From positions 5,024,001 through 5,088,000 of the forward strand of contig CAWAIF010000003.1 in the NCBI GenBank assembly GCA_963782055.1: a stretch of DNA of 64,000 bases, given 5' to 3'. Made by a program: the position numbers and the translations under genes. Of this stretch, positions 35,984-53,112 are shown piece by piece (within the stretch, counting starts at the first letter, position 1; the number at the start of each line of letters is the position of its first letter). The notes under the pieces were generated by a model. That model saw nothing but the letters and a program-made list of their open reading frames with translations, was not told the DNA's origin and did not search any database. This stretch comes from an uncultured delta proteobacterium (GTDB taxonomy: Bacteria; Myxococcota_A; Polyangia; Polyangiales; Polyangiaceae).

Positions 35984-36014
35984 CTCGGCACGAGCCTTGC
36001 TGCCCCGGGTGCCC

Positions 36015-37091
36015 ATGGTCCCCAAGCTCCTTCTCTGTGCTGCCGCACTCCTGCTCTTTGCCGCGAGCTGCAACAAGAAGGAGGAGTCCGGGGGCGCACC
36101 GACAGCGTCCGCCTCCGCAGCTCCTGCGCCCAAGCCGGCGTTCGACCCGAGCGTGATGGCGGTCTTCCAGCCGCTGCCCAGGAGCGCCGACCTCCCGGGC
36201 ACCAACCCCGACCGCGTCGCGCTCGGCAAGATGCTCTACTTCGACGCCCGGCTTTCCAAGAACCACGATGTCTCGTGCAACAGCTGCCACAAGCTGGACG
36301 CCTTCGGCGTGGACGGAACGCCCACGAGCGTGGGGCACAAGCAGCAGCACGGCACACGCAACTCGCCCACCGTGCTGAACGCCGCCATCGAGTTCCGGCA
36401 GTTCTGGGACGGCCGCGCAGCGACGGTCGAAGATCAGGCGACCGGTCCGATGCAGAACCCGGTGGAGATGGCCTCCGACGACAAGCTGGTGGTGGCGACG
36501 GTCTCCTCCATGCCGGAGTACGTGACGCGGTTCGCCAAGGCCTTCCCGGACGAGAAGGCGCCGATCACCATGAAGAACGTGGGGATCGCCATCGGCGCCT
36601 TCGAGCGCAAGCTGCTGACGCCCGGCCGCCTGGACAAGTACCTGGAGGGCGACCACTCGGCGATGACGGAGCCGGAGCTCCTGGGCGCGCAGAAGTTCGT
36701 GCAGACCGGGTGCACCACGTGCCACATGGGCCCTGGCGTCGGAGGCAGCATGTACCAGAAGGCGGGCCTCGTGCACCCGTGGCCGAACCAGAAGGATCAG
36801 GGCCGCTACGAGGACACCAAGAACGACGCCGACCGCATGATGTTCAAGGTGCCCAGCTTGCGGAACGTCGCGAAGACGGCACCCTACTTCAGTGACGGGT
36901 CCGTCGCGTCGCTGGACGAGGCGGTGCACATGATGGCGCACTACCAGCTCGGCAAGGAGCTATCGCCAAAGGACGTGAAGAGCATCGTCACCTTCCTGGA
37001 CGTGCTGACGGCTGCGCCCCCTCCCGACCTCGTCGCGCCCCCGACGTTGCCCAAGAGCACGGCGAAGACGCCGAAGCCCAATCCCAACTGA
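36015..37091 (+). CDS. Di-heme cytochrome c peroxidase
   Basis: LGKMLYFD, SCNSCH, RNSPTV.N, QFWDGRA, CTTCH, FKVPSLRNV..TAPY; lipobox. Confidence 0.92.
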   Translation: MVPKLLLCAAALLLFAASCNKKEESGGAPTASASAAPAPKPAFDPSVMAVFQPLPRSADLPGTNPDRVALGKMLYFDARLSKNHDVSCNSCHKLDAFGVDGTPTSVGHKQQHGTRNSPTVLNAAIEFRQFWDGRAATVEDQATGPMQNPVEMASDDKLVVATVSSMPEYVTRFAKAFPDEKAPITMKNVGIAIGAFERKLLTPGRLDKYLEGDHSAMTEPELLGAQKFVQTGCTTCHMGPGVGGSMYQKAGLVHPWPNQKDQGRYEDTKNDADRMMFKVPSLRNVAKTAPYFSDGSVASLDEAVHMMAHYQLGKELSPKDVKSIVTFLDVLTAAPPPDLVAPPTLPKSTAKTPKPNPN

Positions 37092-38211: not shown

Positions 38212-38571
38212 TCAGCACCCGTCAGGGAGGGCCACGCAGTGGGTCGTGACGGTGTCGCAGTAGTAGCCGCCGAAGCACCCGTTGGGCTGGCAGGCGTTGC
38301 TCGAACCGTTGCAGGCGTGGCACGTGGCGGCGGTGTCGGGGGCGACGTAGTCGGCGCACAGGCCCCCGTCGGGGGCCGCGTCGTCGTCGCTCGATTCGTC
38401 GCTCGAGGCATCGGCGTCGATGGCGGGCAGCTCGGTCACGTCCGGTCGCACCGCGGCGTCGCCATCACCCGCCGGGTCGTCTTGCGGCGCGGCGGGGTCC
38501 TGGAGCGTGGTGGGCGCGGCGCCGCTGCACGCGGCGAGCAAGAGAAGGAGCGGCACGGTCAGGCGATGCAT
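38212..38571 (-). CDS. Small Cys-rich lipoprotein
   Basis: Lipobox LLAAC; C-terminal C..C...NGCFGGYYC...C. Confidence 0.65.
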   Translation of the reverse strand: MHRLTVPLLLLLAACSGAAPTTLQDPAAPQDDPAGDGDAAVRPDVTELPAIDADASSDESSDDDAAPDGGLCADYVAPDTAATCHACNGSSNACQPNGCFGGYYCDTVTTHCVALPDGC

Positions 38572-38666
38572 GGGCGGTCGTACGACGCGGCGCCCAAAAT
38601 CTTCCTTTCCTGCTGGACCGCGGGGCGCCGCATCGCGCGGGGGCCCGCGCGTGCCGGTGGGTCAGG

Positions 38667-39275
38667 TCACCGGCACTGACTCGTCGACGTCAGCTTCTGG
38701 CACTGGTTGGAGCAGCAGTCGCTCCCGTACCGGCAGTACGCGCCCGACTGGCCGCAGTTGGTGCCGCCGTCGCCGCCGCCGGTCGGCGTCGCGCACACAC
38801 CCTGCGGCAGACAGAGGCCGAAGCAGCAGTCGCTCGCCTGCCCGCACGCCTGCCCGCCGAGCGCGCAGCCGAGCCCGCCGTCACCGACCGGGGGGAAGGC
38901 GCACCCGCCGAAGCCGTTGTCGTTGAGACAGTAGCCAGTGCAGCAGGAGTTGGAGTCGGTGCAGGCCGACCCCAGCTCCAGACACTGGTTGCCGTTGCCG
39001 AAGCAGAGGTTGTTGTCGCAGAGGCCGCTGCAGCAGTTGCGGTTCTGCGTGCAGAAGTTCTGGTCGGTCACGCACGCCTGCTCGACCGCCGGCTTGGCCT
39101 GGCAGTACGCCGCGTCCTCGTAGAGCAGGCAGTAGCCCGTGCAGCAATCGGAGTCCTGCGTGCACTCGTGACCGACGCCGGTGAGGCTGCACTGCGTGTC
39201 CCCCGGACCCGCCGAGCCGCAACGCACCAAAAGCACGAGCCCGATCGGCAAGAGCACGGCGGCGGTGCGTCGCAT
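38667..39275 (-). CDS. Secreted protein of five C-C-CC-C-C modules
   Basis: Signal peptide followed by five six-Cys repeats. Confidence 0.75.
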   Translation of the reverse strand: MRRTAAVLLPIGLVLLVRCGSAGPGDTQCSLTGVGHECTQDSDCCTGYCLLYEDAAYCQAKPAVEQACVTDQNFCTQNRNCCSGLCDNNLCFGNGNQCLELGSACTDSNSCCTGYCLNDNGFGGCAFPPVGDGGLGCALGGQACGQASDCCFGLCLPQGVCATPTGGGDGGTNCGQSGAYCRYGSDCCSNQCQKLTSTSQCR

Positions 39276-41709: not shown

Positions 41710-41793
41710 TTCGGGGCGGGGCGGCGCGTGCCGCCCCGTGAGACAAGACCTGAATCGGACGAGCGCGACTCCGAATCGCGCTCGTCCATTTAG
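41710..41793. repeat. REP/MITE-like palindromic intergenic repeat family A, copy 2
   Basis: About 92% identical to 6843-6925; perfect stem ggacgagcgcga/tcgcgctcgtcc. Confidence 0.85.
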
Positions 41794-43748
41794 AGTGATC
41801 GCAGGTACGCCACCAGCGCCGCGGCGTCGTCCGCCGAGAGCTTCGTCGCGTCGCCCACGTGCGCCGCCGGTCCCTTCAGCACGTCCTGCAGCGTCGCCGC
41901 GCTCCCGTCGTGCAGGTACGGCGCGCTGTCGGACAGACCGCGCAGCGAGGGCGTGTCGAAGGCGCACGCGCCGCGCGGGTGGCCCTCCTCGTCGTCGACC
42001 GCGACGTCCACCCACGGGCCGGAGGTCACGCAGGTGCCGACGTCGTGCAGGAGCACCGGGCCGGAGAGGTCGAGCGTGGCGTTGCCCGCGCCGGAGTCGG
42101 TGAAGGCCGCGCCGGAGTGACAGCTCGCGCACCCGAGCGAGCCGAACAGGTCCTTGCCGTGCGCGACCTGCCCGGGGTCGAGGCCGCGCGGCGGGGACGG
42201 GTAGGGCAGCGCGTAGTCCACGAATTTCTCCAGCGCGTCCAGGTCCGCCGAGAGCGCCGGCACGTTCGGGTCGAAGTGGCCGCCCTGCTCCACGTTGATG
42301 GTCTGCCAGTAGTCCTGCACCTTGTTGCGCGCGCCGGTTCGGAAGAGGAAGCCCGTCTGCTTGGTGCCGCCGGCGTTGGACGGCGTGTCGCGCGGCCCCT
42401 GGCCGAAGCGCCAGGTGACCGCGTCGCTGCGGCCCTCCAGGTGGCAGCTCGCGCAGGAGACCCAGTGATCGGTCGTGACCGGCAGCTCGTCGCTCTGGGC
42501 GGAGAAGAAGACGTGCTGGCCGAGGCGCAGGTCGGCGGGCATCGGGTCCTTCGCCAGGCGCGGGATGGCGGCGCCGTCGACGGTCACCGTGACCGGACCC
42601 GCCTCGCCACCGGAGACGGCGAGCACCGCGACGTCGCTGGTGTTGCGCTCGTCGACGTACACGTGACCGTCGGCGGAGACCGCCACGCCCTCCGGCTGGT
42701 GGCCGGGCAGCGGCCGCACCAGGGCGACCTCGACGCGCTTGTCGGCGTCGACGACCAGCACGTCCTCGCTGCCGGTGTCGGCGACGAAGGCGAGCTTGCC
42801 GTCGGCGGAGAAGGCGATGGCCCGCGGGCCGGACACCACGTCACCGAAGGCGCCGCCATCCTTCGGCGCGGTGCTCACCGTCAGCCGCGCGAGCGGCGCG
42901 CCGCCGGCATCGAACAGGGAGATGGCCGGGAAGACGGTGCGCTGGAAGTCCAGCGTGGGCTGCGGCGTGTCGGTACCGAGCATCATGTGGAGCGCCCAGG
43001 TCTCCGTCGTGCCCGGGCGCGCCAGCACGTCGTAGAGGCCGCGCGACTCGCCGTGCGGCACGGTGGGATCGGCGCCCGGGGGGCCGTCGGCCACCGCCCA
43101 TGTCGTCTGCAGGGCGAGCGGCGAGGGCGCGAGCACGCTCACGCCGGGCCCGAGCAGGTGCGTGACGTAGATCTGCGAGCGGTCGGCGCTCCAGGCGAGC
43201 GTCCACGGCTTGCGCGGCGTGTCCACGCGAGCGGTGACCGCGAGCGTCGTCGCGTCCAGGGCGAGCACCGCGTCGTCCTGCGAGCACGCGACGTACACGC
43301 TCTTGCCGTCCGGCGCGGCGAGCACGCCGATGGGCTCGGAGCAGGTGTCGGCGTCGGCGGTGATCGCGCCGGAGGCGGTGTCCAGTGCGTAGACGTGCCC
43401 GTTGCGCTCGCCGGTGACGTAGAGCGTCTTGCCCCCGGGGCCGAGGGCGAGGGCGCGCGGCCCGACCGCCGGCTCGTAGCGGCCGGCGCCGTCCACCGCG
43501 GGGGGCGCGCTCGAGAGCGGCGTCTCCCGGATGAGCGTCCGCGCGCGCGCGTCGACGAAGGAGACCGAGTCGGCGTCGGCGTTGACGACGTAGACCGTGG
43601 CGCCGTCGGTGCTCACCGCGATGCTCGACGAGTGATCCGACTCGCCCTGCGGGCCGCCGGCCGGCGGCGGCGTGACGTCGGACGACGAGCAGGCGAGCGA
43701 GCCGGCGACCCCGAGGAGGGCGAGGCGTGCGAGGAGGCGCGCGCTCAC
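41790..43748 (-). CDS. Lipoprotein: YVTN beta-propeller fused to a di-heme bCcP/MauG-like domain
   Basis: YV.N/YVT repeats; SCASCH, RDTPS, GCASCH, FDTPSLRG....APYLHDG; lipobox SLAC. Confidence 0.85.
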   Translation of the reverse strand: MSARLLARLALLGVAGSLACSSSDVTPPPAGGPQGESDHSSSIAVSTDGATVYVVNADADSVSFVDARARTLIRETPLSSAPPAVDGAGRYEPAVGPRALALGPGGKTLYVTGERNGHVYALDTASGAITADADTCSEPIGVLAAPDGKSVYVACSQDDAVLALDATTLAVTARVDTPRKPWTLAWSADRSQIYVTHLLGPGVSVLAPSPLALQTTWAVADGPPGADPTVPHGESRGLYDVLARPGTTETWALHMMLGTDTPQPTLDFQRTVFPAISLFDAGGAPLARLTVSTAPKDGGAFGDVVSGPRAIAFSADGKLAFVADTGSEDVLVVDADKRVEVALVRPLPGHQPEGVAVSADGHVYVDERNTSDVAVLAVSGGEAGPVTVTVDGAAIPRLAKDPMPADLRLGQHVFFSAQSDELPVTTDHWVSCASCHLEGRSDAVTWRFGQGPRDTPSNAGGTKQTGFLFRTGARNKVQDYWQTINVEQGGHFDPNVPALSADLDALEKFVDYALPYPSPPRGLDPGQVAHGKDLFGSLGCASCHSGAAFTDSGAGNATLDLSGPVLLHDVGTCVTSGPWVDVAVDDEEGHPRGACAFDTPSLRGLSDSAPYLHDGSAATLQDVLKGPAAHVGDATKLSADDAAALVAYLRSL

Positions 43749-46114
43749 GGCCCCACCTTGGTGATCTTGAGGACGATGGAGTCGGCCAGCGCGGAGGGCC
43801 TGCCCGCCGCCGAGATCTCCGGTACGCAATCCGGCTCGCGGTCGGTGGCGATCTTGCGAGGCCCGGCGTCGCTCTTGTCAGCCACCGTACCCGTCTCGCC
43901 GGTGAGGGTGCGCTCCGCCATCTGCAGGCCGCCGCGCGGCAGGCCATCCACCACCTGGATGCACTCCGCCGGCCAGTCGACCCCCTTGTTGCCGTTGCGG
44001 TCGTCCCAGCCGTTGAGCAGGAGCTTGTCCAGCCGCCCGACGCGGTCCTCGATCTGCGCGGCGAGGTCCTCCTGGCCCGCGCGCACGCCGATGAGCTCGT
44101 AGGTGTCGCGCAGCATCGCTTGCAGGAGCGCGAAGCGCATCACCCCGAACTCCACGGTGTCCGACGTGTCGCCGGGCGTCGGCCGGTAGAGCCGCGCCGA
44201 GGGGTCGTAGAACTTCGCCTCCACGCGCTGGTAGACGGCGAGCGCGCGGTCGCGCAGCCGCGTGTCGCCTGTCGCCAGGTAGCCGAGCAGCAGGCCGCGC
44301 ACCGCGGCGGTGTGGGCGTCGAGCACGTCGTCGTCGCTGGTGACGGCGCCCTTCGCCACGTCCCAGCCCGGCCACGCGCGGCCGGAGGCGTCGGTCAGGT
44401 GGTCGTAGAAGAGGTTGGCGAGGGCGGCGACCATGGAGTTCAGCTCCTCGGTCACCACCTCCGGCTTCGGTGTGGTCGCGATGGGCGGCGCGTCCAGGGG
44501 CGTGGTGACCGTCGCGGTGTCCGGCTTGTTGTTGCCGTAGAGGCTGAGCTGGTCGGAGAGCGCCCGGCGCGTGGTGCGCAGGGCGAGCAGCGCGTAGGCC
44601 GCGGTCACCGCCGAGAGCGTCGTGCCGCGCGTGACCTGGCCGCCGCTCACCGAAGCGTCGTCGACGGGAAGGCCGGAGGCGGGGTCGCGGTGCATGCGCG
44701 CCAGGTCCACCAGCGCCACGCGGATCATGGCGAGCGCGCGGTCGTGCAGGGTGGGCTCGCCGTCCGCGATCTGATCGTCGGCGGGGAACGGGTCGCCGTC
44801 GAAGTAGGCGCGCACGGCCTGCGAGCCGCCGACCTCGGCGTTGGCCTGATCGGTGAGGGCGTAGAGCGACGCGTACGCGCCGAGCAGACCGGACAGATCG
44901 AGCAGGCGGCTGCCCGGCGTGCGGACGGCGTAGGCGCTGGGCCGCGGGAACTCGCAGTCGGGGTCGGTCGCCTCGGTGACGGCAATCTCCGCCGGGAAGT
45001 AGAGCAGCGGCGCGTTCGCGTCGTAGGCGAGCGCGCCCGCGAGGTCCTTGAAGCCGCCCAGCGCGGTGCCGTCGCCCGTCAACCTCTCGGTGAGCCAGTC
45101 CTGCGCCTCGTTGTCCAGCTCGCTGAGCATCAGCCCCGCCTGGAAGCCCTCGATGTCGCTCGAGCCGAGGTAGGTCCCGGCGACCGCGCCGTCGTCCTTG
45201 GCGAGCACCGCGTTGCCCGGCGCGCCCACCTGCGCGAGATCCGCCTCGTCGACCTGCGTGACGGCGGTCTCCGCGGCGTCGTGCATCGACTGCAGGTAGT
45301 TGATGATCCACAGCGCCGACTTCCAGCCCGCCCAGCCGCTGGAGCCGGGGGAGATGGCCGCGTCCACCTGGTTGGCGCGATCGACCAGGTGCAGGGTGGT
45401 GGCGTCGCACTCGTAGTCGTCGCTGAGCAGCCCGCCGCTCGCGCCGGGGTCGTCGTCGGAGGTGATGGAGCACGCGAGCGAGACCGAGTTGGTGGGCGCG
45501 ATGGTGGGATCGAAGGAGACGAAGGGCTCCATCGTCGGCCAGATGCCCGGCCACCCGAGCGGGTTCTCCGGCGTCGCCTGCGCGTGCACGAAGCGGGAGG
45601 TCGCGTTGCTCGCCGCGCCGAGCGACTGCACCACGTCGCGCAGCGCGGAGCACGCCGCGGTGCCTCCCGCCTGCGCGGTGTCGATGAGGGGCGCGTACGC
45701 CAGCGAGATCCCTGCGCCGGACTCGAACGCCAGCTCGTTCATCGGCTGCTTGGAGTACTCGTACGACTCGATCGCGCTGGCGAAGCCCGCCGGATCCAGG
45801 AACGGACCGAAGCCGTCGAGCGAGGGGTCGAAGTAGATGTCCGGCGGGCGGAAGTCGCGGCTGTAGCGCGTGAGGTCCCGGCCCATCGCCTCGGCGAAGG
45901 GCTCGCCGGAGAGCTGCATCTCCAGCCCGGCGAGCATGTGCTCGCGCACCACGAAGCGATCGTCGCGCGAGACGACCGAGATGATGGGCGGCGAGGCCAC
46001 GGGGCCGTCGGCGCCGGCGTCTCCCGCCGGCGGCGTGGTGTCGTCGCCGCCGGAGCACGCGGCGGCGATGGCGACGGCGACGAGGGTTCCGCCTGCGGCG
46101 AGCGCGCGCCTCAC
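43745..46114 (-). CDS. Large lipoprotein of unknown function (789 aa)
   Basis: Lipobox AAAC; acidic; GTGA overlaps with both neighbours; C-terminal helical-barrel-like segment. Confidence 0.8.
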   Translation of the reverse strand: MRRALAAGGTLVAVAIAAACSGGDDTTPPAGDAGADGPVASPPIISVVSRDDRFVVREHMLAGLEMQLSGEPFAEAMGRDLTRYSRDFRPPDIYFDPSLDGFGPFLDPAGFASAIESYEYSKQPMNELAFESGAGISLAYAPLIDTAQAGGTAACSALRDVVQSLGAASNATSRFVHAQATPENPLGWPGIWPTMEPFVSFDPTIAPTNSVSLACSITSDDDPGASGGLLSDDYECDATTLHLVDRANQVDAAISPGSSGWAGWKSALWIINYLQSMHDAAETAVTQVDEADLAQVGAPGNAVLAKDDGAVAGTYLGSSDIEGFQAGLMLSELDNEAQDWLTERLTGDGTALGGFKDLAGALAYDANAPLLYFPAEIAVTEATDPDCEFPRPSAYAVRTPGSRLLDLSGLLGAYASLYALTDQANAEVGGSQAVRAYFDGDPFPADDQIADGEPTLHDRALAMIRVALVDLARMHRDPASGLPVDDASVSGGQVTRGTTLSAVTAAYALLALRTTRRALSDQLSLYGNNKPDTATVTTPLDAPPIATTPKPEVVTEELNSMVAALANLFYDHLTDASGRAWPGWDVAKGAVTSDDDVLDAHTAAVRGLLLGYLATGDTRLRDRALAVYQRVEAKFYDPSARLYRPTPGDTSDTVEFGVMRFALLQAMLRDTYELIGVRAGQEDLAAQIEDRVGRLDKLLLNGWDDRNGNKGVDWPAECIQVVDGLPRGGLQMAERTLTGETGTVADKSDAGPRKIATDREPDCVPEISAAGRPSALADSIVLKITKVGP

Positions 46115-47211
46115 GAGCGCGCGTCCTCGCCCCTGGGCGTCCAGAGGTCCGACTCCAGGGTGTCGAGCAGCGCGCGCTGCGCCTCCGGCGGCGGCAAGCC
46201 GGCGTCACGCACCAGCGAGGCCGGGAGGTCGCGCGCCGCCTGGCGGCGGAGCGTGGCGACGGCCGCCAGGCGTGCATCGCGCACGCGCGCGCGCGCCCCG
46301 GCGTCCAGCCGCGCCTCCGCCCAGCGCGCCACCTGCCACGCGAAGGCGGCGTGGCGCGTCTCGTCGGCGGCGATCGTCCGCATCGCCGCGGCGATGGCGC
46401 CGTCCCCCGCGTGCGCCGCCTGCCACCAGGCCACGAGCGCGGCGAACGTCTCGCCGACGCAGCCCTCCGCGGCGTTCTCCGCGGCGAAGGTCTCCAGGTC
46501 GCGACGCCGTTCGCGCGCGGCGTGCACGCGCGGCGGTCGTGCGCCGTGGCGCGCGGCGAGATCGCGCACCGCGCGCGCGTGGCGGCGCTCGTCGCGGGCG
46601 CTCCGCGCCGCGAGCGCGGTGAGATCGGCCGGCGCACCGAAGGCGGCCAGCTCCGCCTCCATCCGCCGGAAGGCGACGACCGCGGCGGCCTCCATGTGCG
46701 CCGAGCCGGCCAGGTACGCGCCGAGCGCCGACGCCGCAGGCGAGGCCTCAGGCGGGCGCAGCCCCTCCGGGCGTCGCCCCGGCCCGCCCAGGCACGTCGC
46801 GCAGTCGACGAGGAGCGGTGAGGCGTCGGTGATGCCGCCGTCGACGCAGGAGTCGCCGGTGGCGGAGCAGTAGAAGACGATGCCGTTGCAGATGTTCTCG
46901 CAGTCGCCGAGGGTGAGCGAGCAGCCGGAGGTCGACGTGCCCGGCGGGAGCCCGCACGGCACCTTCACGGTGAAGCCGCAAAGCTCCGCGGCGGCGTCGA
47001 TGTCCTGCTCGATCGCGCACGGGTCCACCCCGCCGTCACCCGGCGGCTCCTGCGCATCGACGCCCGTGTCGGCGAGCGGCATGGCGTCCTGCCCGGAGAT
47101 CGCGTCGGCCCCGCTGTCCGCGCCCGCGGGTCCGTCGGACGATCCGCACGCGCAGAGGGTGGTGGCGGCGGTCGCGAGGATCGCCCGTCGGAACAAGGAC
47201 CGGAGCCGCAT
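46111..47211 (-). CDS. Exported Cys-rich + ferritin-like diiron domain lipoprotein
   Basis: Lipobox LCAC, Cys-rich region, GRRPEG, then E...DERRH...EGCVGE...DETRH. Confidence 0.8.
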   Translation of the reverse strand: MRLRSLFRRAILATAATTLCACGSSDGPAGADSGADAISGQDAMPLADTGVDAQEPPGDGGVDPCAIEQDIDAAAELCGFTVKVPCGLPPGTSTSGCSLTLGDCENICNGIVFYCSATGDSCVDGGITDASPLLVDCATCLGGPGRRPEGLRPPEASPAASALGAYLAGSAHMEAAAVVAFRRMEAELAAFGAPADLTALAARSARDERRHARAVRDLAARHGARPPRVHAARERRRDLETFAAENAAEGCVGETFAALVAWWQAAHAGDGAIAAAMRTIAADETRHAAFAWQVARWAEARLDAGARARVRDARLAAVATLRRQAARDLPASLVRDAGLPPPEAQRALLDTLESDLWTPRGEDARS

Positions 47212-47268
47212 CTCTTCTCGTCTCATCGCCAACCTCACCTGCAACGAGTGTAGCCCGTCTTATTGAAC

Positions 47269-47285
47269 TTGAAAATGACTTTCAT
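47269..47285. promoter_or_regulatory. Fur-box-like operator in divergent promoter
   Basis: tTGAAAAT-g-ACTTTCAt 7-1-7 inverted repeat, 11/14 match to TGATAATnATTATCA, in a conspicuously AT-rich patch. Confidence 0.65.
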
Positions 47286-47345
47286 ATCCCTTAAGACAGA
47301 GCCATGCAGGATGGCCTTGCTGGCGCTCGGCGACAGGTGCTGGCG

Positions 47346-47882
47346 ATGAAGCCGGTCTTCGCGGTGGTGATCGCAGCTACGCTCTCGTGTGCGTCGGCGG
47401 ACGCCACCTCGCGAGACGAGGGGCAGACCTTCGTCGCCTACACGGCCAGCTTCGCCGACTACCGCACGTGGGAGCCCTTCCAGGTGGGCACGCCGGTCGA
47501 CGGCGCCGACGCTGGCTGCGCGGCGCACGATCCCTCGGCGTCGCGTGTCGCCTACCTGAACCACCGCCCCCCGCCGGGCTCCACGCGCTTCCCGGTCGGC
47601 ACCGTCATCGTCAAGGAGACGCAGAAGGGGGCCGAGGCGGACTGGAAGGTGTTCGCGATGGTCAAGCGCGGCGGGGGCTACAACGCCGGCGGCGCCAGGG
47701 ACTGGGAGTGGTTCGAGCTCACGCCGCCCACCTCCGGACCGCCCACCATCATCTGGCGTGGCGTCGCGCCGCCGACAGGCGAGGGCTACGGCACCGGCTG
47801 CGGTGGCTGCAACGAGTGCCACGCGGCGGCGGCGGGCAACGACTTCGTCCAGTCCCCGCTGCTCGACCTGTCCTCCTTCTGA
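47346..47882 (+). CDS. Cytochrome P460 family protein
   Basis: FPVGTVIVKE, FAMVKR, DWEWF, C-terminal CNECH...DFV; signal peptide. Confidence 0.8.
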   Translation: MKPVFAVVIAATLSCASADATSRDEGQTFVAYTASFADYRTWEPFQVGTPVDGADAGCAAHDPSASRVAYLNHRPPPGSTRFPVGTVIVKETQKGAEADWKVFAMVKRGGGYNAGGARDWEWFELTPPTSGPPTIIWRGVAPPTGEGYGTGCGGCNECHAAAAGNDFVQSPLLDLSSF

Positions 47883-47924: not shown

Positions 47925-48920
47925 ATGTCGATGGACCCCGTCACGCTGGACCAGCTCCACGTCTTCGTCACCGTGGTCGAGCAGGGCAGCTTCTCCGCCG
48001 CCGCCCGCCACCTGCGCCGCGCGCAGTCGGCGGTCAGCTATGCCATCGCCAACCTGGAGCGCCTGCTCGACGTCCCCCTCTTCGATCGCCGCAGCAAGAC
48101 GCCGGAGCTCACCGACGCCGGCCGCGCGTTGCTCAGCGACGCGCACGCGATCCTCTACCGCACCGCGGAGCTGCAGGCGCGCGCGCGGGCGATGCACCAG
48201 GGCGTCGAGCCGCGGCTGACGCTGGCGGTGGACGTCCTCTTCCCGATGGCCACCCTCGTGGAGGCCGTGGAGGCGTTCCAGCGAGAGTTCGCCGCGGTGG
48301 AGCTGCTCCTCCGCTCGGAGGCGCTCGGCGGCGTCGCCCAGCTCGTGCGCGACGGCGTGTGTCAGGTGGGGCTGAGCGCGGAGCTTCCGCGCTTCCCCGA
48401 AGGGCTCCACCGCTGGCCGATGGGGAGCATCGAGATGGTGACGGTCGTCGCGCGCGAGCACGAGCTTGCCCGGCACCGCGGCTTCATCCCCGCGCAAGTC
48501 ATGCGCGAGCACGTCCACCTCGTTTTGTCCGACCGCAGCGATCTGACGGCAGGCGTCGACTTCGGCGTGCTCGGCGGGCGCGTCTGGCGCCTGATGGACC
48601 TGCGCACGCGCCACGCGCTGCTGCGCGCCGGCCTCGGCTGGGCGCGCATGCCCAAGCCCCTGGTGGCGGAGGACCTGCGTCGCGGGCGTCTGGTGCGCAT
48701 TCGCCCAGCCGATTATGGCCCTTCGCCCTTCCACCTGAACCTGTTCGCCGTCTACCGAACCGCCGACCCGCCCGGTCCGGCCGCCCGCTGGCTGCTGGGC
48801 CGGCTGGGTGCGTGTCCGGACGACATGGAGACTCCCGCGCGGAGGCCCCCCCGACCCCGGCCCGCGGCTCGTCCCCCACGCCGCCCGCGAGGACCAGCCC
48901 GACGGCCCGGCTCGTGGTAA
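47925..48920 (+). CDS. LysR-family transcriptional regulator
   Basis: TLDQL..F..VVEQGSFSAAAR.L.RAQSAVS..IANLE HTH. Confidence 0.93.
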   Translation: MSMDPVTLDQLHVFVTVVEQGSFSAAARHLRRAQSAVSYAIANLERLLDVPLFDRRSKTPELTDAGRALLSDAHAILYRTAELQARARAMHQGVEPRLTLAVDVLFPMATLVEAVEAFQREFAAVELLLRSEALGGVAQLVRDGVCQVGLSAELPRFPEGLHRWPMGSIEMVTVVAREHELARHRGFIPAQVMREHVHLVLSDRSDLTAGVDFGVLGGRVWRLMDLRTRHALLRAGLGWARMPKPLVAEDLRRGRLVRIRPADYGPSPFHLNLFAVYRTADPPGPAARWLLGRLGACPDDMETPARRPPRPRPAARPPRRPRGPARRPGSW

Positions 48921-50032: not shown

Positions 50033-50821
50033 ATGCTGGAACGAGTCAAGAGCGCGTTGGTTGGACTGGGGGCCGGGTGGGTCCTCATCTTGATGTTCAT
50101 CCTGAGCATCATCTCGGTCGCCGTGATGCTGGAGCGCGCGTGGCTCTTCCTCTCCCTGCGCGACGATGTCCCCCGGCTCATGCGCGACCTGGCGCAGCTG
50201 CTCCGCCGGGGCGACCTTGAGGGCGCGCGGCGCCGTCTGGAGTCCTCGCCCAGCGCGGAGGCGGCGGTCGTCGTCGCCGGCCTCGTGGAGGCGGAGCTCG
50301 GCGCGCTGGCGGCCGAGGAGGCGATGGCCGGCGCGGCGGCGCTGCAGCGCACCCGGCTGGAGAAGCGCCTCGCATTCCTCGGCACGGTCGGCAACAACGC
50401 CCCCTTCATCGGCCTGCTCGGGACCGTCATCGGCATCGTGGCGGCGTTCGACGAGCTCGCGCGCGAGTCCGGCGCGGTGACGACGACAGGCGGCGCCACC
50501 GGCACCGGAGCGACGGTCAGCGCCGCCCTGCAGGCCCACATCTCGGAGGCGCTCGTCGCCACCGCGGTCGGCCTGTTCGTCGCCATCCCGGCGGTGGCCG
50601 CGTACAACTACTTCCAGCGCATCGTGAAGGGCACTGTGGCCAACACCGACGCGCTCGCCCACGTGCTGCTCGCTCACCTGAAGTCGGTTCCCGTCGGCGC
50701 GCTCGCGGGGGCTCCGGTGGAGGCGGCGCCCCGCCCCGCGAAGGAGGGGAAGGAGCAACCTCCGCCCTCCAGGCGAGAGCCGAAGGAGAAGGAGCCCGCG
50801 GCCGAAGAGGCGGAGTCCTGA
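50033..50821 (+). CDS. exbB: MotA/TolQ/ExbB proton channel
   Basis: LGTVGNNAPFIGLLGTVIGI, ISEALVATAVGLFVAIPA. Confidence 0.88.
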   Translation: MLERVKSALVGLGAGWVLILMFILSIISVAVMLERAWLFLSLRDDVPRLMRDLAQLLRRGDLEGARRRLESSPSAEAAVVVAGLVEAELGALAAEEAMAGAAALQRTRLEKRLAFLGTVGNNAPFIGLLGTVIGIVAAFDELARESGAVTTTGGATGTGATVSAALQAHISEALVATAVGLFVAIPAVAAYNYFQRIVKGTVANTDALAHVLLAHLKSVPVGALAGAPVEAAPRPAKEGKEQPPPSRREPKEKEPAAEEAES

Positions 50822-50824
50822 GCC

Positions 50825-51265
50825 ATGGCGGGCGGACAGGTCGCAGAGGAAGACGCCATCGTCGGGATCAACGTGACGCCGCTCGTCGACGTCACCCTGG
50901 TGCTCGCCATCGTGCTGATGGTGACGGCGAAGATGGTCGTGCAGCCGTCGGCGGTGCCCCTCGACCTCCCGCGCGCCGCCACCGGCTCCAGCCAGGTGCA
51001 GACGGTCTTCAGCATCGAGCTCGCGGCGGACGGCACCACCTACGTGGACAAGAAGAAGCAGCCCAACGACGACGCCATCTACAATCTGGCCAGGGCCGCC
51101 CACCTCCGCGACCCCGAGCTGCGCGCCGTCATCAAGGCGGACACCACCGTCCAGCACGGGCGCGTCATCCACGTGCTGGATCTCCTCAAGCAATCCGGCG
51201 TCACCAAGATCGCCTTCGGCGTCGCCCCCACAGCGCCGGTCCACCCGGACGAGCCGAAGAAGTGA
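50825..51265 (+). CDS. exbD: ExbD/TolR family protein
   Basis: INVTPLVDVTLVL, IKAD...HG.VI.VLD. Confidence 0.88.
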   Translation: MAGGQVAEEDAIVGINVTPLVDVTLVLAIVLMVTAKMVVQPSAVPLDLPRAATGSSQVQTVFSIELAADGTTYVDKKKQPNDDAIYNLARAAHLRDPELRAVIKADTTVQHGRVIHVLDLLKQSGVTKIAFGVAPTAPVHPDEPKK

Positions 51266-51271
51266 GGTGAG

Positions 51272-52144
51272 GTGAACGGCACCGCCCACGGCCCGCGCGC
51301 CCGGCACGTCGCCACGATGACGCCGGCGTTCTCGCAGGACCCGATGCATCGCATCGACGCCCTGGGGGAGCACGGCCTGCGCGCGATGGTGGTGGGGATC
51401 CTGGTGGCGCTGGCCGTCCACGGCGTCGCGGCCATCCGCACGGCGTACATCCACGCCGAGCTCATCGCGTGGGTCCAGCAGCTCGCCGGCTCGCTCGACG
51501 GTGACCTGACGCAGACGATCGACATCGTGCCGGAGAAGGTGGACCCCCCTCCCCCGCCGCCGCCGGAGCAGAAGGACGACTCCCCGCCCCCGCCCCCGCC
51601 GCCGACCCCGGAGGCGAAGGACACGCCCCCGCCCCCGCCGGCCCCCGCGGAGGCCGGGAAGATCCTCGCGGCCAACCCCGACAATCAGGCGCCGCTCGAC
51701 CTCACCAACACCTTCGTGCAGGGCACCGGGGACAGCTACGCCGGCGGCGTGACGCAGGCGACCGGCACCAGCAAGGTGGCGGTGCACACGCAGGCGGTGA
51801 GCCCGCGCGGCGTGCCCGGTGGCCGCGGCCCGGTGCGACCGCAGCAGGCCGTCGCGGCCGCCAATCTCTCTCGCCCCATCCAGCTCGCCGGCTCCAGCGA
51901 GTGGCACTGCCCCTTCCCGCCGGAGGCCGACGCCGACCAGATCGACGAGGCCGCGGCCGTCGTGTCGGTCACGGTGGGGCCCAGCGGGCGCCCGCAGCGC
52001 GTCACCATTGTGCAGGATCCCGGGCACGGCTTCGGCCGCGAGGCCCGCGCCTGCGCCCTGCGCGAGTCCTACAGCCCCGCGCTCGACCGCGCCGGCAACG
52101 CCGTCGTCGCGGCCAAGAGCTTCCGCGTGCGCTTCGAGCGCTGA
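51272..52144 (+). CDS. tonB: TonB family energy transducer
   Basis: N-terminal TM with His, Pro-rich spacer, TonB_C-like domain. Confidence 0.8.
   Translation: MNGTAHGPRARHVATMTPAFSQDPMHRIDALGEHGLRAMVVGILVALAVHGVAAIRTAYIHAELIAWVQQLAGSLDGDLTQTIDIVPEKVDPPPPPPPEQKDDSPPPPPPPTPEAKDTPPPPPAPAEAGKILAANPDNQAPLDLTNTFVQGTGDSYAGGVTQATGTSKVAVHTQAVSPRGVPGGRGPVRPQQAVAAANLSRPIQLAGSSEWHCPFPPEADADQIDEAAAVVSVTVGPSGRPQRVTIVQDPGHGFGREARACALRESYSPALDRAGNAVVAAKSFRVRFER

Positions 52145-52164: not shown

Positions 52165-53112
<948 letters not shown>

Follow-up and report, generated by a model that had tools for sequence, protein, structure and literature searches.

A conserved, iron-linked gene pair behind a Fur-type box in an uncultured member of the Polyangiaceae: a predicted (α/α)6-barrel lipoprotein and its propeller/di-heme partner

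The window analysed here is a stretch of 64,000 nucleotides with a GC content of 72% from an uncultured delta proteobacterium of the Polyangiaceae (NCBI GenBank assembly GCA_963782055.1, contig CAWAIF010000003.1, positions 5,024,001 to 5,088,000), and it carries an operon of three lipoprotein genes that lies back to back with the gene of an exported cytochrome and has its named relatives among Polyangiaceae and Kofleriaceae. A sequence-only reading of this DNA had proposed that the four genes form an iron-regulated envelope redox system. We conclude that two of them make up a real and conserved gene pair that is linked to iron and apparently undescribed, and for which we infer a mechanism below. 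The features of the locus, with open reading frames abbreviated as ORFs and amino acids as aa, are the following:

46111-47211, minus strand: ferritin-like lipoprotein ORF, 366 aa, Cys-rich, with ExxH motifs at residues 208 and 284; accessory here and the first gene behind the box
43745-46114, minus strand: core lipoprotein ORF, 789 aa, a predicted decorated (α/α)6 barrel and the proposed iron-capture subunit
41790-43748, minus strand: propeller/di-heme lipoprotein ORF, 652 aa, a YVTN β-propeller with a di-heme domain of the cytochrome c peroxidase (CcP) fold; the proposed redox partner
47269-47285, no strand: Fur-type box of the deltaproteobacterial type, between the divergent genes
47346-47882, plus strand: ORF of a P460-like exported mono-heme cytochrome with one CNECH motif, probably of the P460/c'β fold; a frequent neighbour of the core

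All three minus-strand genes are present at the positions first read for them and are linked by 4-bp GTGA overlaps, and the N-terminus of each is hydrophobic and closes on a lipobox-like Cys, as read from the sequence. The third gene was correctly described as a YVTN propeller with two CASCH motifs (TIGR02276 above its cut-off, CASCH at 432 and 540), and the two flanking genes are likewise as described, with a qualification for each. The ferritin-like protein has both its ExxH motifs, yet its matches to ferritin-clan Pfam families are weak (AurF at an E-value of 0.027, under the cut-off), and the divergent gene has its single heme motif but scores below threshold for Cytochrome_P460 (22.7 versus 27 bits), hence our wording P460-like.

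The conserved unit of this locus consists of the core and the propeller/di-heme gene, with the P460-like gene as a frequent and the ferritin-like gene as an occasional neighbour. Among 7999 candidates scored we found 981 homologs of the core, which is single-copy in its own genome, and these fall into a subfamily A of myxobacterial lipoproteins, a subfamily B of which many carry a type IX secretion tail and whose named members belong to Bacteroidota, Marinimicrobia and FCB, and a subfamily C with members from Anoxybacillus, Aeromonas and metagenomes. In a survey of the phylum, made as one even draw of 301 genomes, the core was matched in 13 (eight strong matches of subfamily A, this genome included, four of subfamily B and one marginal). 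The di-heme subfamily (E ≤ 1e-100) occurs in seven of the 301 genomes, all of them among the eight with a subfamily-A core, and in the eighth the core stops 254 bp from the end of its contig. The homolog and neighbourhood analysis that had been suggested for the 789-aa protein thus bears out the expected co-occurrence, in that the pair recurs across genomes.

For the neighbourhoods of subfamily A we took the best 80 of 222 relatives (79 loci), to which five loci were added and from which two short ones were removed, giving 82 loci in 60 groups; neighbours were counted by marker searches, and since related loci are not independent these counts are descriptive. The di-heme gene lies at most 1.6 kb downstream of the core in 40 of the 54 groups with enough downstream DNA. 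Across the 39 dereplicated groups with 5 kb on both sides, the core has as neighbours a 170-aa lipoprotein family (23 groups), the P460-like family (13), an outer-membrane barrel (11), a Kelch propeller (11), the ferritin-like family (4) and DUF4397 (3). The diiron protein had been counted as a core part of the system, and this does not hold: besides its presence in only 4/39 groups, it has five paralogs in this genome, all unlinked (weak AurF/rubrerythrin matches for ORF and paralogs alike), and its family is absent from the 26 most widespread neighbour families listed for subfamily C. The ferritin-like lipoprotein is accessory and comes from a multi-copy family. In a FastTree tree, again descriptive, the deepest subfamily-A branches with downstream DNA carry both di-heme gene and box, and the partnerless, box-less paralogs form several inner clades. 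The neighbour of these paralogs is either a propeller protein of the Kelch/galactose-oxidase-like kind or a lipoprotein of 170 aa that contains Cys (loci L055, L074, L090, L098, L106-L108, L113-L115 and others), and they may be a branch that was repurposed for a different metal or placed under a different regulator.

The box lies midway between the divergent genes, with a gap of 58 bp to the start of the ferritin-like gene and of 61 bp to that of the P460-like gene, and agrees with 15 of the 16 specified positions of the deltaproteobacterial Fur palindrome WTGAAAATNATTTTCAW. We built a Fur matrix from 28 sites upstream of the core in other genomes, with the window's own site excluded, and its consensus is the dFUR box published for the region upstream of feoAB in deltaproteobacteria (PMC545781). 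With this matrix the window's box scores 35.1 bits, third best in the 7.58-Mb genome, and five hits of at least 28 bits fall at just four loci, namely directly upstream of feoA-feoB, between bfd and the bacterioferritin gene, upstream of an outer-membrane barrel gene and at this operon; no such hit appeared in any of ten shuffles (200-bp blocks). The Fur-like box that had been noticed therefore stands above chance, and the motif that it has in common with feoAB and bfd/bacterioferritin supports the proposed regulation by iron through Fur, of whose family this genome has three genes by motif. A Fur-like pattern of at least 10/14 precedes the core in 29/92 locus records (some duplicated) versus 0/92 gene-internal controls. 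Within subfamily A, boxes were detected in 24 of the 40 scanned upstream regions of groups with the di-heme gene and in 1/13 of those without it, a count that is partly circular because the matrix was trained on those loci.

This genome (97% complete) also has one FecCD permease and six TonB receptors, whose surroundings, out to 6 kb, show no box that scores more than 13.6 bits, and neither imelysin/EfeO nor FTR1 was found, so that Fe(II) import by FeoB is the visible exit for iron. The boxed outer-membrane barrel is unlinked to the operon but belongs to the same family as the barrel neighbours of the core elsewhere, and when 14 sequences are aligned, it keeps Glu or Asp at 14 invariant positions, as would suit a cation pore; it is a candidate iron porin. 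Close members occur in 10/301 genomes, five of them without any core, and so are not exclusive to the system. The barrel gene is unannotated (L116:6390-7202, contig G000:C3) and has the strongest Fur-type box of the genome at 4235320; its wider family is found in 53/301 genomes. Neither this barrel nor the spread of the core across phyla had been part of the sequence-only reading.

The pair extends to distant relatives in subfamily C. In Anoxybacillus amylolyticus, the gene of a core homolog of 24% identity (Anoxybacillus accession WP_066327942.1) has next to it, downstream, that of a propeller/di-heme protein of 651 aa (profile E-value 1e-122), and Fur-like boxes scoring 15 and 14 of 19 lie upstream. 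From metagenomes we kept 80 of 131 relatives, in 40 groups at 90%, on contigs that were assigned to phyla by their composition and the style of their genes. Upstream of the core, 32/38 groups show a classical Fur box of at least 13/19, versus 1/38 internal controls, these being coding DNA rather than composition-matched intergenic DNA. Of the 25 groups with 5 kb downstream, 24 encode the propeller–heme partner, 18 a membrane segment and eight FTR1, and feoB is linked in 3/40 groups. At the non-bacillus loci the partner carries six CxxCH motifs, and the membrane segment, fused or adjacent to it, has four invariant His in 10/10 sequences examined, which we take to be the pattern of a di-heme cytochrome b, even though a Pfam scan did not recognise this segment. 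In larger subfamily-C operons (L152, L155, L202, L204, L217), FTR1 is accompanied by an FAD oxidoreductase, by an exported protein of ca. 190 aa that lacks annotation and by a membrane protein that resembles glycosyltransferases (weak match to PMT_2). DUF2325 is a recurrent neighbour of the core and of feoB, both in bacilli and at low-GC loci (L138:8001-8297; L143, L190, L204), and in Anoxybacillus stands behind a Fur-like box.

The 789-aa core had been called an unknown, and indeed its sequence finds no match in Pfam, NCBIfam or the PDB, with profile-to-PDB E-values of 0.4 or worse. Its AlphaFold2 model, built from a 148-sequence alignment with a predicted local distance difference test score (pLDDT) of 92 and a predicted template modelling score of 0.92, resembles (α/α)6 barrels in Foldseek and VIA-align comparisons, with mannose isomerase, cellobiose and N-acetylglucosamine 2-epimerases, GH105 and GH76 as matches (best match Z 17.4, root-mean-square deviation 3.1, 346 residues aligned). 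We predict a decorated (α/α)6 barrel like the AGE-epimerase/GH76 fold, which has the barrel of the AGE epimerase superfamily without a Pfam match to it. The likeness to AGE, cellobiose 2-epimerase, GH76 and GH105 proteins is one of fold (Z up to 17.4 over ca. 345 residues), and the core differs from them by an identity of only 7-13% among the top matches, ca. 400 residues of additions beyond the barrel, its lipoprotein nature, other conserved residues and an iron-linked context. Across 34 representatives of the three subfamilies, the polar residues kept family-wide are E65, S69-G-E-P72, E116-x-Y-E-Y-S121, K265, W269, H278 and E/D322, followed by Y364, E381, D439, H475, R606, R669, Q731, E734, E/D740 and D762. 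Matches in the ESM Atlas are hypothetical clusters and weak AGE/GH76 leads; the automatic label DUF4856 given there was rejected, as Pfam scans of six family members showed no DUF4856. Only 1.2 kb separate one subfamily-B core (L033:12168-14396) from a TonB-dependent receptor that has a CxxxM motif of the kind known from copper receptors, and subfamily B may be linked to another metal.

A member of the same family has already been studied in Aeromonas hydrophila under the name of a "hypothetical protein", AHA_2481/ORF01830. This homolog (hidden Markov model E-value 5e-70), whose sequence cluster comprises 2503 sequences, is identified by a published cloning primer and a length of 2001 bp that match the gene, and its neighbours AHA_2479 and AHA_2482 fit this identity in two further studies (PMC4541717, PMC3341381). 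As reported in the main study, AHA_2481 is found in the extracellular proteome, is 10.19- and 9.82-fold up under iron starvation and does not show on a western blot unless chelator is added, and deleting it raises the median lethal dose in zebrafish (PMC6387970). Its gene sits between the amonabactin genes and glgC behind a weak box (13/19) and, unlike the window's core, has no neighbouring heme partner, so that a barrel of the core type can work by itself or with a partner encoded elsewhere. The Aeromonas gene also occurs as a copy on a plasmid, where its native upstream region, Fur-like site included, is gone (L137:8400-9000 versus L139:8700-9000).

One alternative is that the core is an enzyme of iron starvation in line with the sugar enzymes of its fold. 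Its substrate would be a ligand that holds iron (siderophore, acidic polysaccharide, humic complex or citrate complex), to be cleaved or modified, or else it would make a small chelator on the outer side of the membrane, with the heme partner handling the freed iron or oxidising the product. The AGE/GH76/GH105 fold speaks for it, as do the conserved acids of the core, which could form a catalytic pair, its work without a heme partner beside the amonabactin genes of Aeromonas and the secretion of subfamily B by the type IX system. We nevertheless consider it unlikely. AGE enzymes carry a catalytic His in the last helices, where this family conserves no His at all; its two family-wide His (278 and 475) both fall within the first 60% of the chain. 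Identity to these enzymes is very low, and genes for sugar transport or catabolism do not recur among the neighbours of the core.

The partner is modelled as a seven-bladed propeller with a helical heme domain (pLDDT 84.8), and in profile comparisons it resembles CcP, MbnH and the β and γ subunits of hydrazine synthase only distantly. It shows two CxxCH motifs and the CcP-type two-domain pattern of the bCcP/MauG superfamily at a CCP_MauG Pfam score of 24.1 bits (cut-off 25.6) but scores far under the family cut-offs for MbnH (48.9 versus 362.85) and MauG (28.4 versus 443.85). MauG and MbnH are marked by a Tyr as distal ligand of heme 2 and by a Trp between the hemes. Among 48 orthologs, the segment of the distal ligand of heme 2 never has Tyr; it has Met in 46 and His in two (the window's partner being one of these). 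At the position of the Trp between the hemes, mapped by motif, 47/48 have Arg (Arg470), with Trp kept in the Anoxybacillus ortholog. Lacking the Tyr ligand and with Arg at the Trp position, the partner is a poor candidate for the high-valent, protein-modifying chemistry of MauG and MbnH, and the cofactor-maturation system that had been one of the earlier suggestions becomes the weaker reading; the pattern rather fits electron transfer.

That the di-heme enzyme matures the core after translation, making a metal ligand from Trp or Tyr as MbnH modifies MbnP and MauG modifies MADH, would fit the strict gene pairing, the superfamily fold of the partner and the invariant W269, Y118 and Y120 of the core. 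Apart from ligand pattern and scores, it is made improbable by the same Trp and Tyr being kept in cores without a neighbouring heme partner and by the cytochrome b and four extra hemes of other lineages, which point to continuous electron flow. We regard chemistry of nitric oxide (NO) or hydroxylamine like that of hydrazine synthase, carried out by a β/γ-like fusion with P460, as very improbable: propeller and heme domains do resemble those two subunits, and a P460-like gene is at hand, but the partner reaches 53 bits against an equivalog cut-off of 1250, the operon is probably under Fur regulation, and the core, in contrast to the α subunit of hydrazine synthase, is a helical barrel that lacks CxxCH. 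The P460-like protein itself has weak profile matches to P460 and c'β structures (E-values of 0.03-0.05), and its Lys90 aligns with the Lys of solved P460s; this Lys is present in 17 of 25 orthologs and replaced by Glu in eight, so that the family does not need the cross-link, a further point against hydrazine-synthase-like chemistry.

A further alternative reverses the direction, in that the heme protein would oxidise Fe(II) in the manner of EfeB or a ferroxidase and the core hold Fe(III) for Ftr1 or surface storage, or that the module would mainly remove peroxide or NO during iron starvation. The linkage of FTR1 in subfamily C, the CcP fold with its mostly Met-ligated second heme and the P460-like and ferritin-like neighbours argue for it. 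This genome has no FTR1 but a separate stand-alone CcP gene (35997-37091), the other targets of the motif are Fur-type iron genes and not catalase or peroxiredoxin, and myxobacterial partners lack the inter-heme Trp, so we hold this alternative to be rather doubtful.

Several known systems resemble the pair in part. The imelysins (IrpA/ICMP/LruB) with DHOR and EfeUOB are presented as Fur-regulated, exported, putative iron-binding lipoproteins that nearly always have a protein like a heme peroxidase as their partner and in some cases an Ftr1 permease as well (PMC3143127). They share with the pair Fur regulation and an exported lipoprotein with a heme partner, as analogous and not homologous systems: the Peptidase_M75 (imelysin) domain is absent from core and genome, the core being an (α/α)6 barrel, and the partner here is a fusion of YVTN propeller and CcP fold that stays below the DHOR cut-off (19.6 versus 22 bits), with no FTR1 in the genome. 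In P19–Ftr1/FtrABCD, according to a preprint, the Ftr1 permease works with extracytosolic redox partners (bioRxiv 10.1101/2021.01.07.425746). The likeness here is the FTR1 linkage in 8/25 subfamily-C groups, but the capture protein is a different one, no P19 or cupredoxin was seen among recurring neighbours, and this genome shows no FTR1. MbnH/MbnP, MauG and SACCP/MopE are cases of a di-heme protein of the bCcP/MauG fold next to an exported partner under metal limitation. The window has the same arrangement of genes, but with iron instead of copper regulation, Met/His instead of the Tyr ligand, a fused propeller and scores far under the family cut-offs. As had been stated from the start, then, the system matches no named pathway, be it imelysin–DHOR/EfeUOB, MauG/MbnH or hydrazine synthase, and the literature searched, whose coverage left out most subscription papers, contained no description of it.

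The idea of an exported metal-acquisition module is supported, together with Fur-type regulation and the co-occurrence of the pair, and we consider a role of the locus in iron acquisition probable. What the data show is the gene pair, its box, the motif in common with feoAB and bfd/bacterioferritin, the conservation in several phyla and the published induction of one distant homolog, that of Aeromonas, by iron starvation. With slightly better than even confidence, we propose that the likely task of the pair is to capture ferric iron at the cell envelope and, again likely, to reduce it so that FeoAB can import it. Low iron would lift Fur repression of the operon, of feoAB and of the unlinked acidic outer-membrane barrel, which would admit iron; conserved Glu, Tyr and Lys at the starts of the barrel helices of the core would bind Fe(III), free or weakly chelated, and the heme partner would pass an electron to it. 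This electron may come from the attached cytochrome b-like segment in hexaheme versions and here possibly from the P460-like cytochrome, and the iron would go on to FeoB, or to Ftr1 where linked. The ferritin-like lipoprotein would be an optional add-on, perhaps a buffer for envelope iron or peroxide. Reduction is preferred because the genome shows only Feo and other lineages attach the cytochrome b-like segment; for capture and reduction as a mechanism our confidence is about even.

Besides the circular training of the matrix and the coding-DNA control, a number of points weigh against this proposal. Cores without a partner occur in the Aeromonas group, at four inspected subfamily-B loci and in 14/54 subfamily-A groups, and as the partnerless paralogs are mostly without box (1/13), part of the family may do something else. 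Moreover, the scan of upstream regions found no box in 16 of the 40 di-heme-bearing subfamily-A groups, among them the three nearest relatives of this core, and the Aeromonas homolog shares only 27% identity with it. The solved relatives of the fold are sugar epimerases and glycosidases, and the grouping of several conserved residues at the barrel mouth, in one site, is deduced from secondary structure. Iron binding, redox direction and complex formation are likewise what we infer for this module, and Ftr1 is usually coupled to an oxidase, which speaks against a single, reductive direction.

Three other elements of the window were considered as parts of the system and rejected, having neither a box nor recurrence with the core as a unit: a LysR gene (47925-48920), the lipoprotein di-heme CcP already mentioned (CCP_MauG E-value 4e-55, 4.7 kb from the operon) and the exbB/exbD/tonB-like trio (50033-52144, recognised from its sequence). 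This trio is followed by a glutaredoxin–HesB–rhodanese-like fusion that ends at 53112. The window also encodes, at 38212-39275, two small predicted lipoproteins that are rich in Cys, show repeats of a knottin-like Cys pattern and have only weak Pfam matches.

More broadly, we tentatively envisage, at slightly less than even confidence, a multi-phylum system independent of siderophore receptors, in which a (α/α)6 barrel of the sugar-epimerase type was converted to surface iron capture and a propeller–multiheme partner wires it to the membrane electron pool (by cytochrome b and six hemes in some lineages, by two hemes and a P460-like cytochrome in myxobacteria), with FeoB and Ftr1 as interchangeable importers. 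If true, this would be an unrecognised route of iron uptake in soil myxobacteria, thermophilic bacilli and many aquatic bacteria, encoded by genes that are all annotated as "hypothetical", and the first metal-handling role for a fold known from sugar enzymes. Cultured carriers of the pair exist, and an abundant, iron-induced secreted protein of Aeromonas that is already studied as a fish vaccine antigen would gain a testable function.

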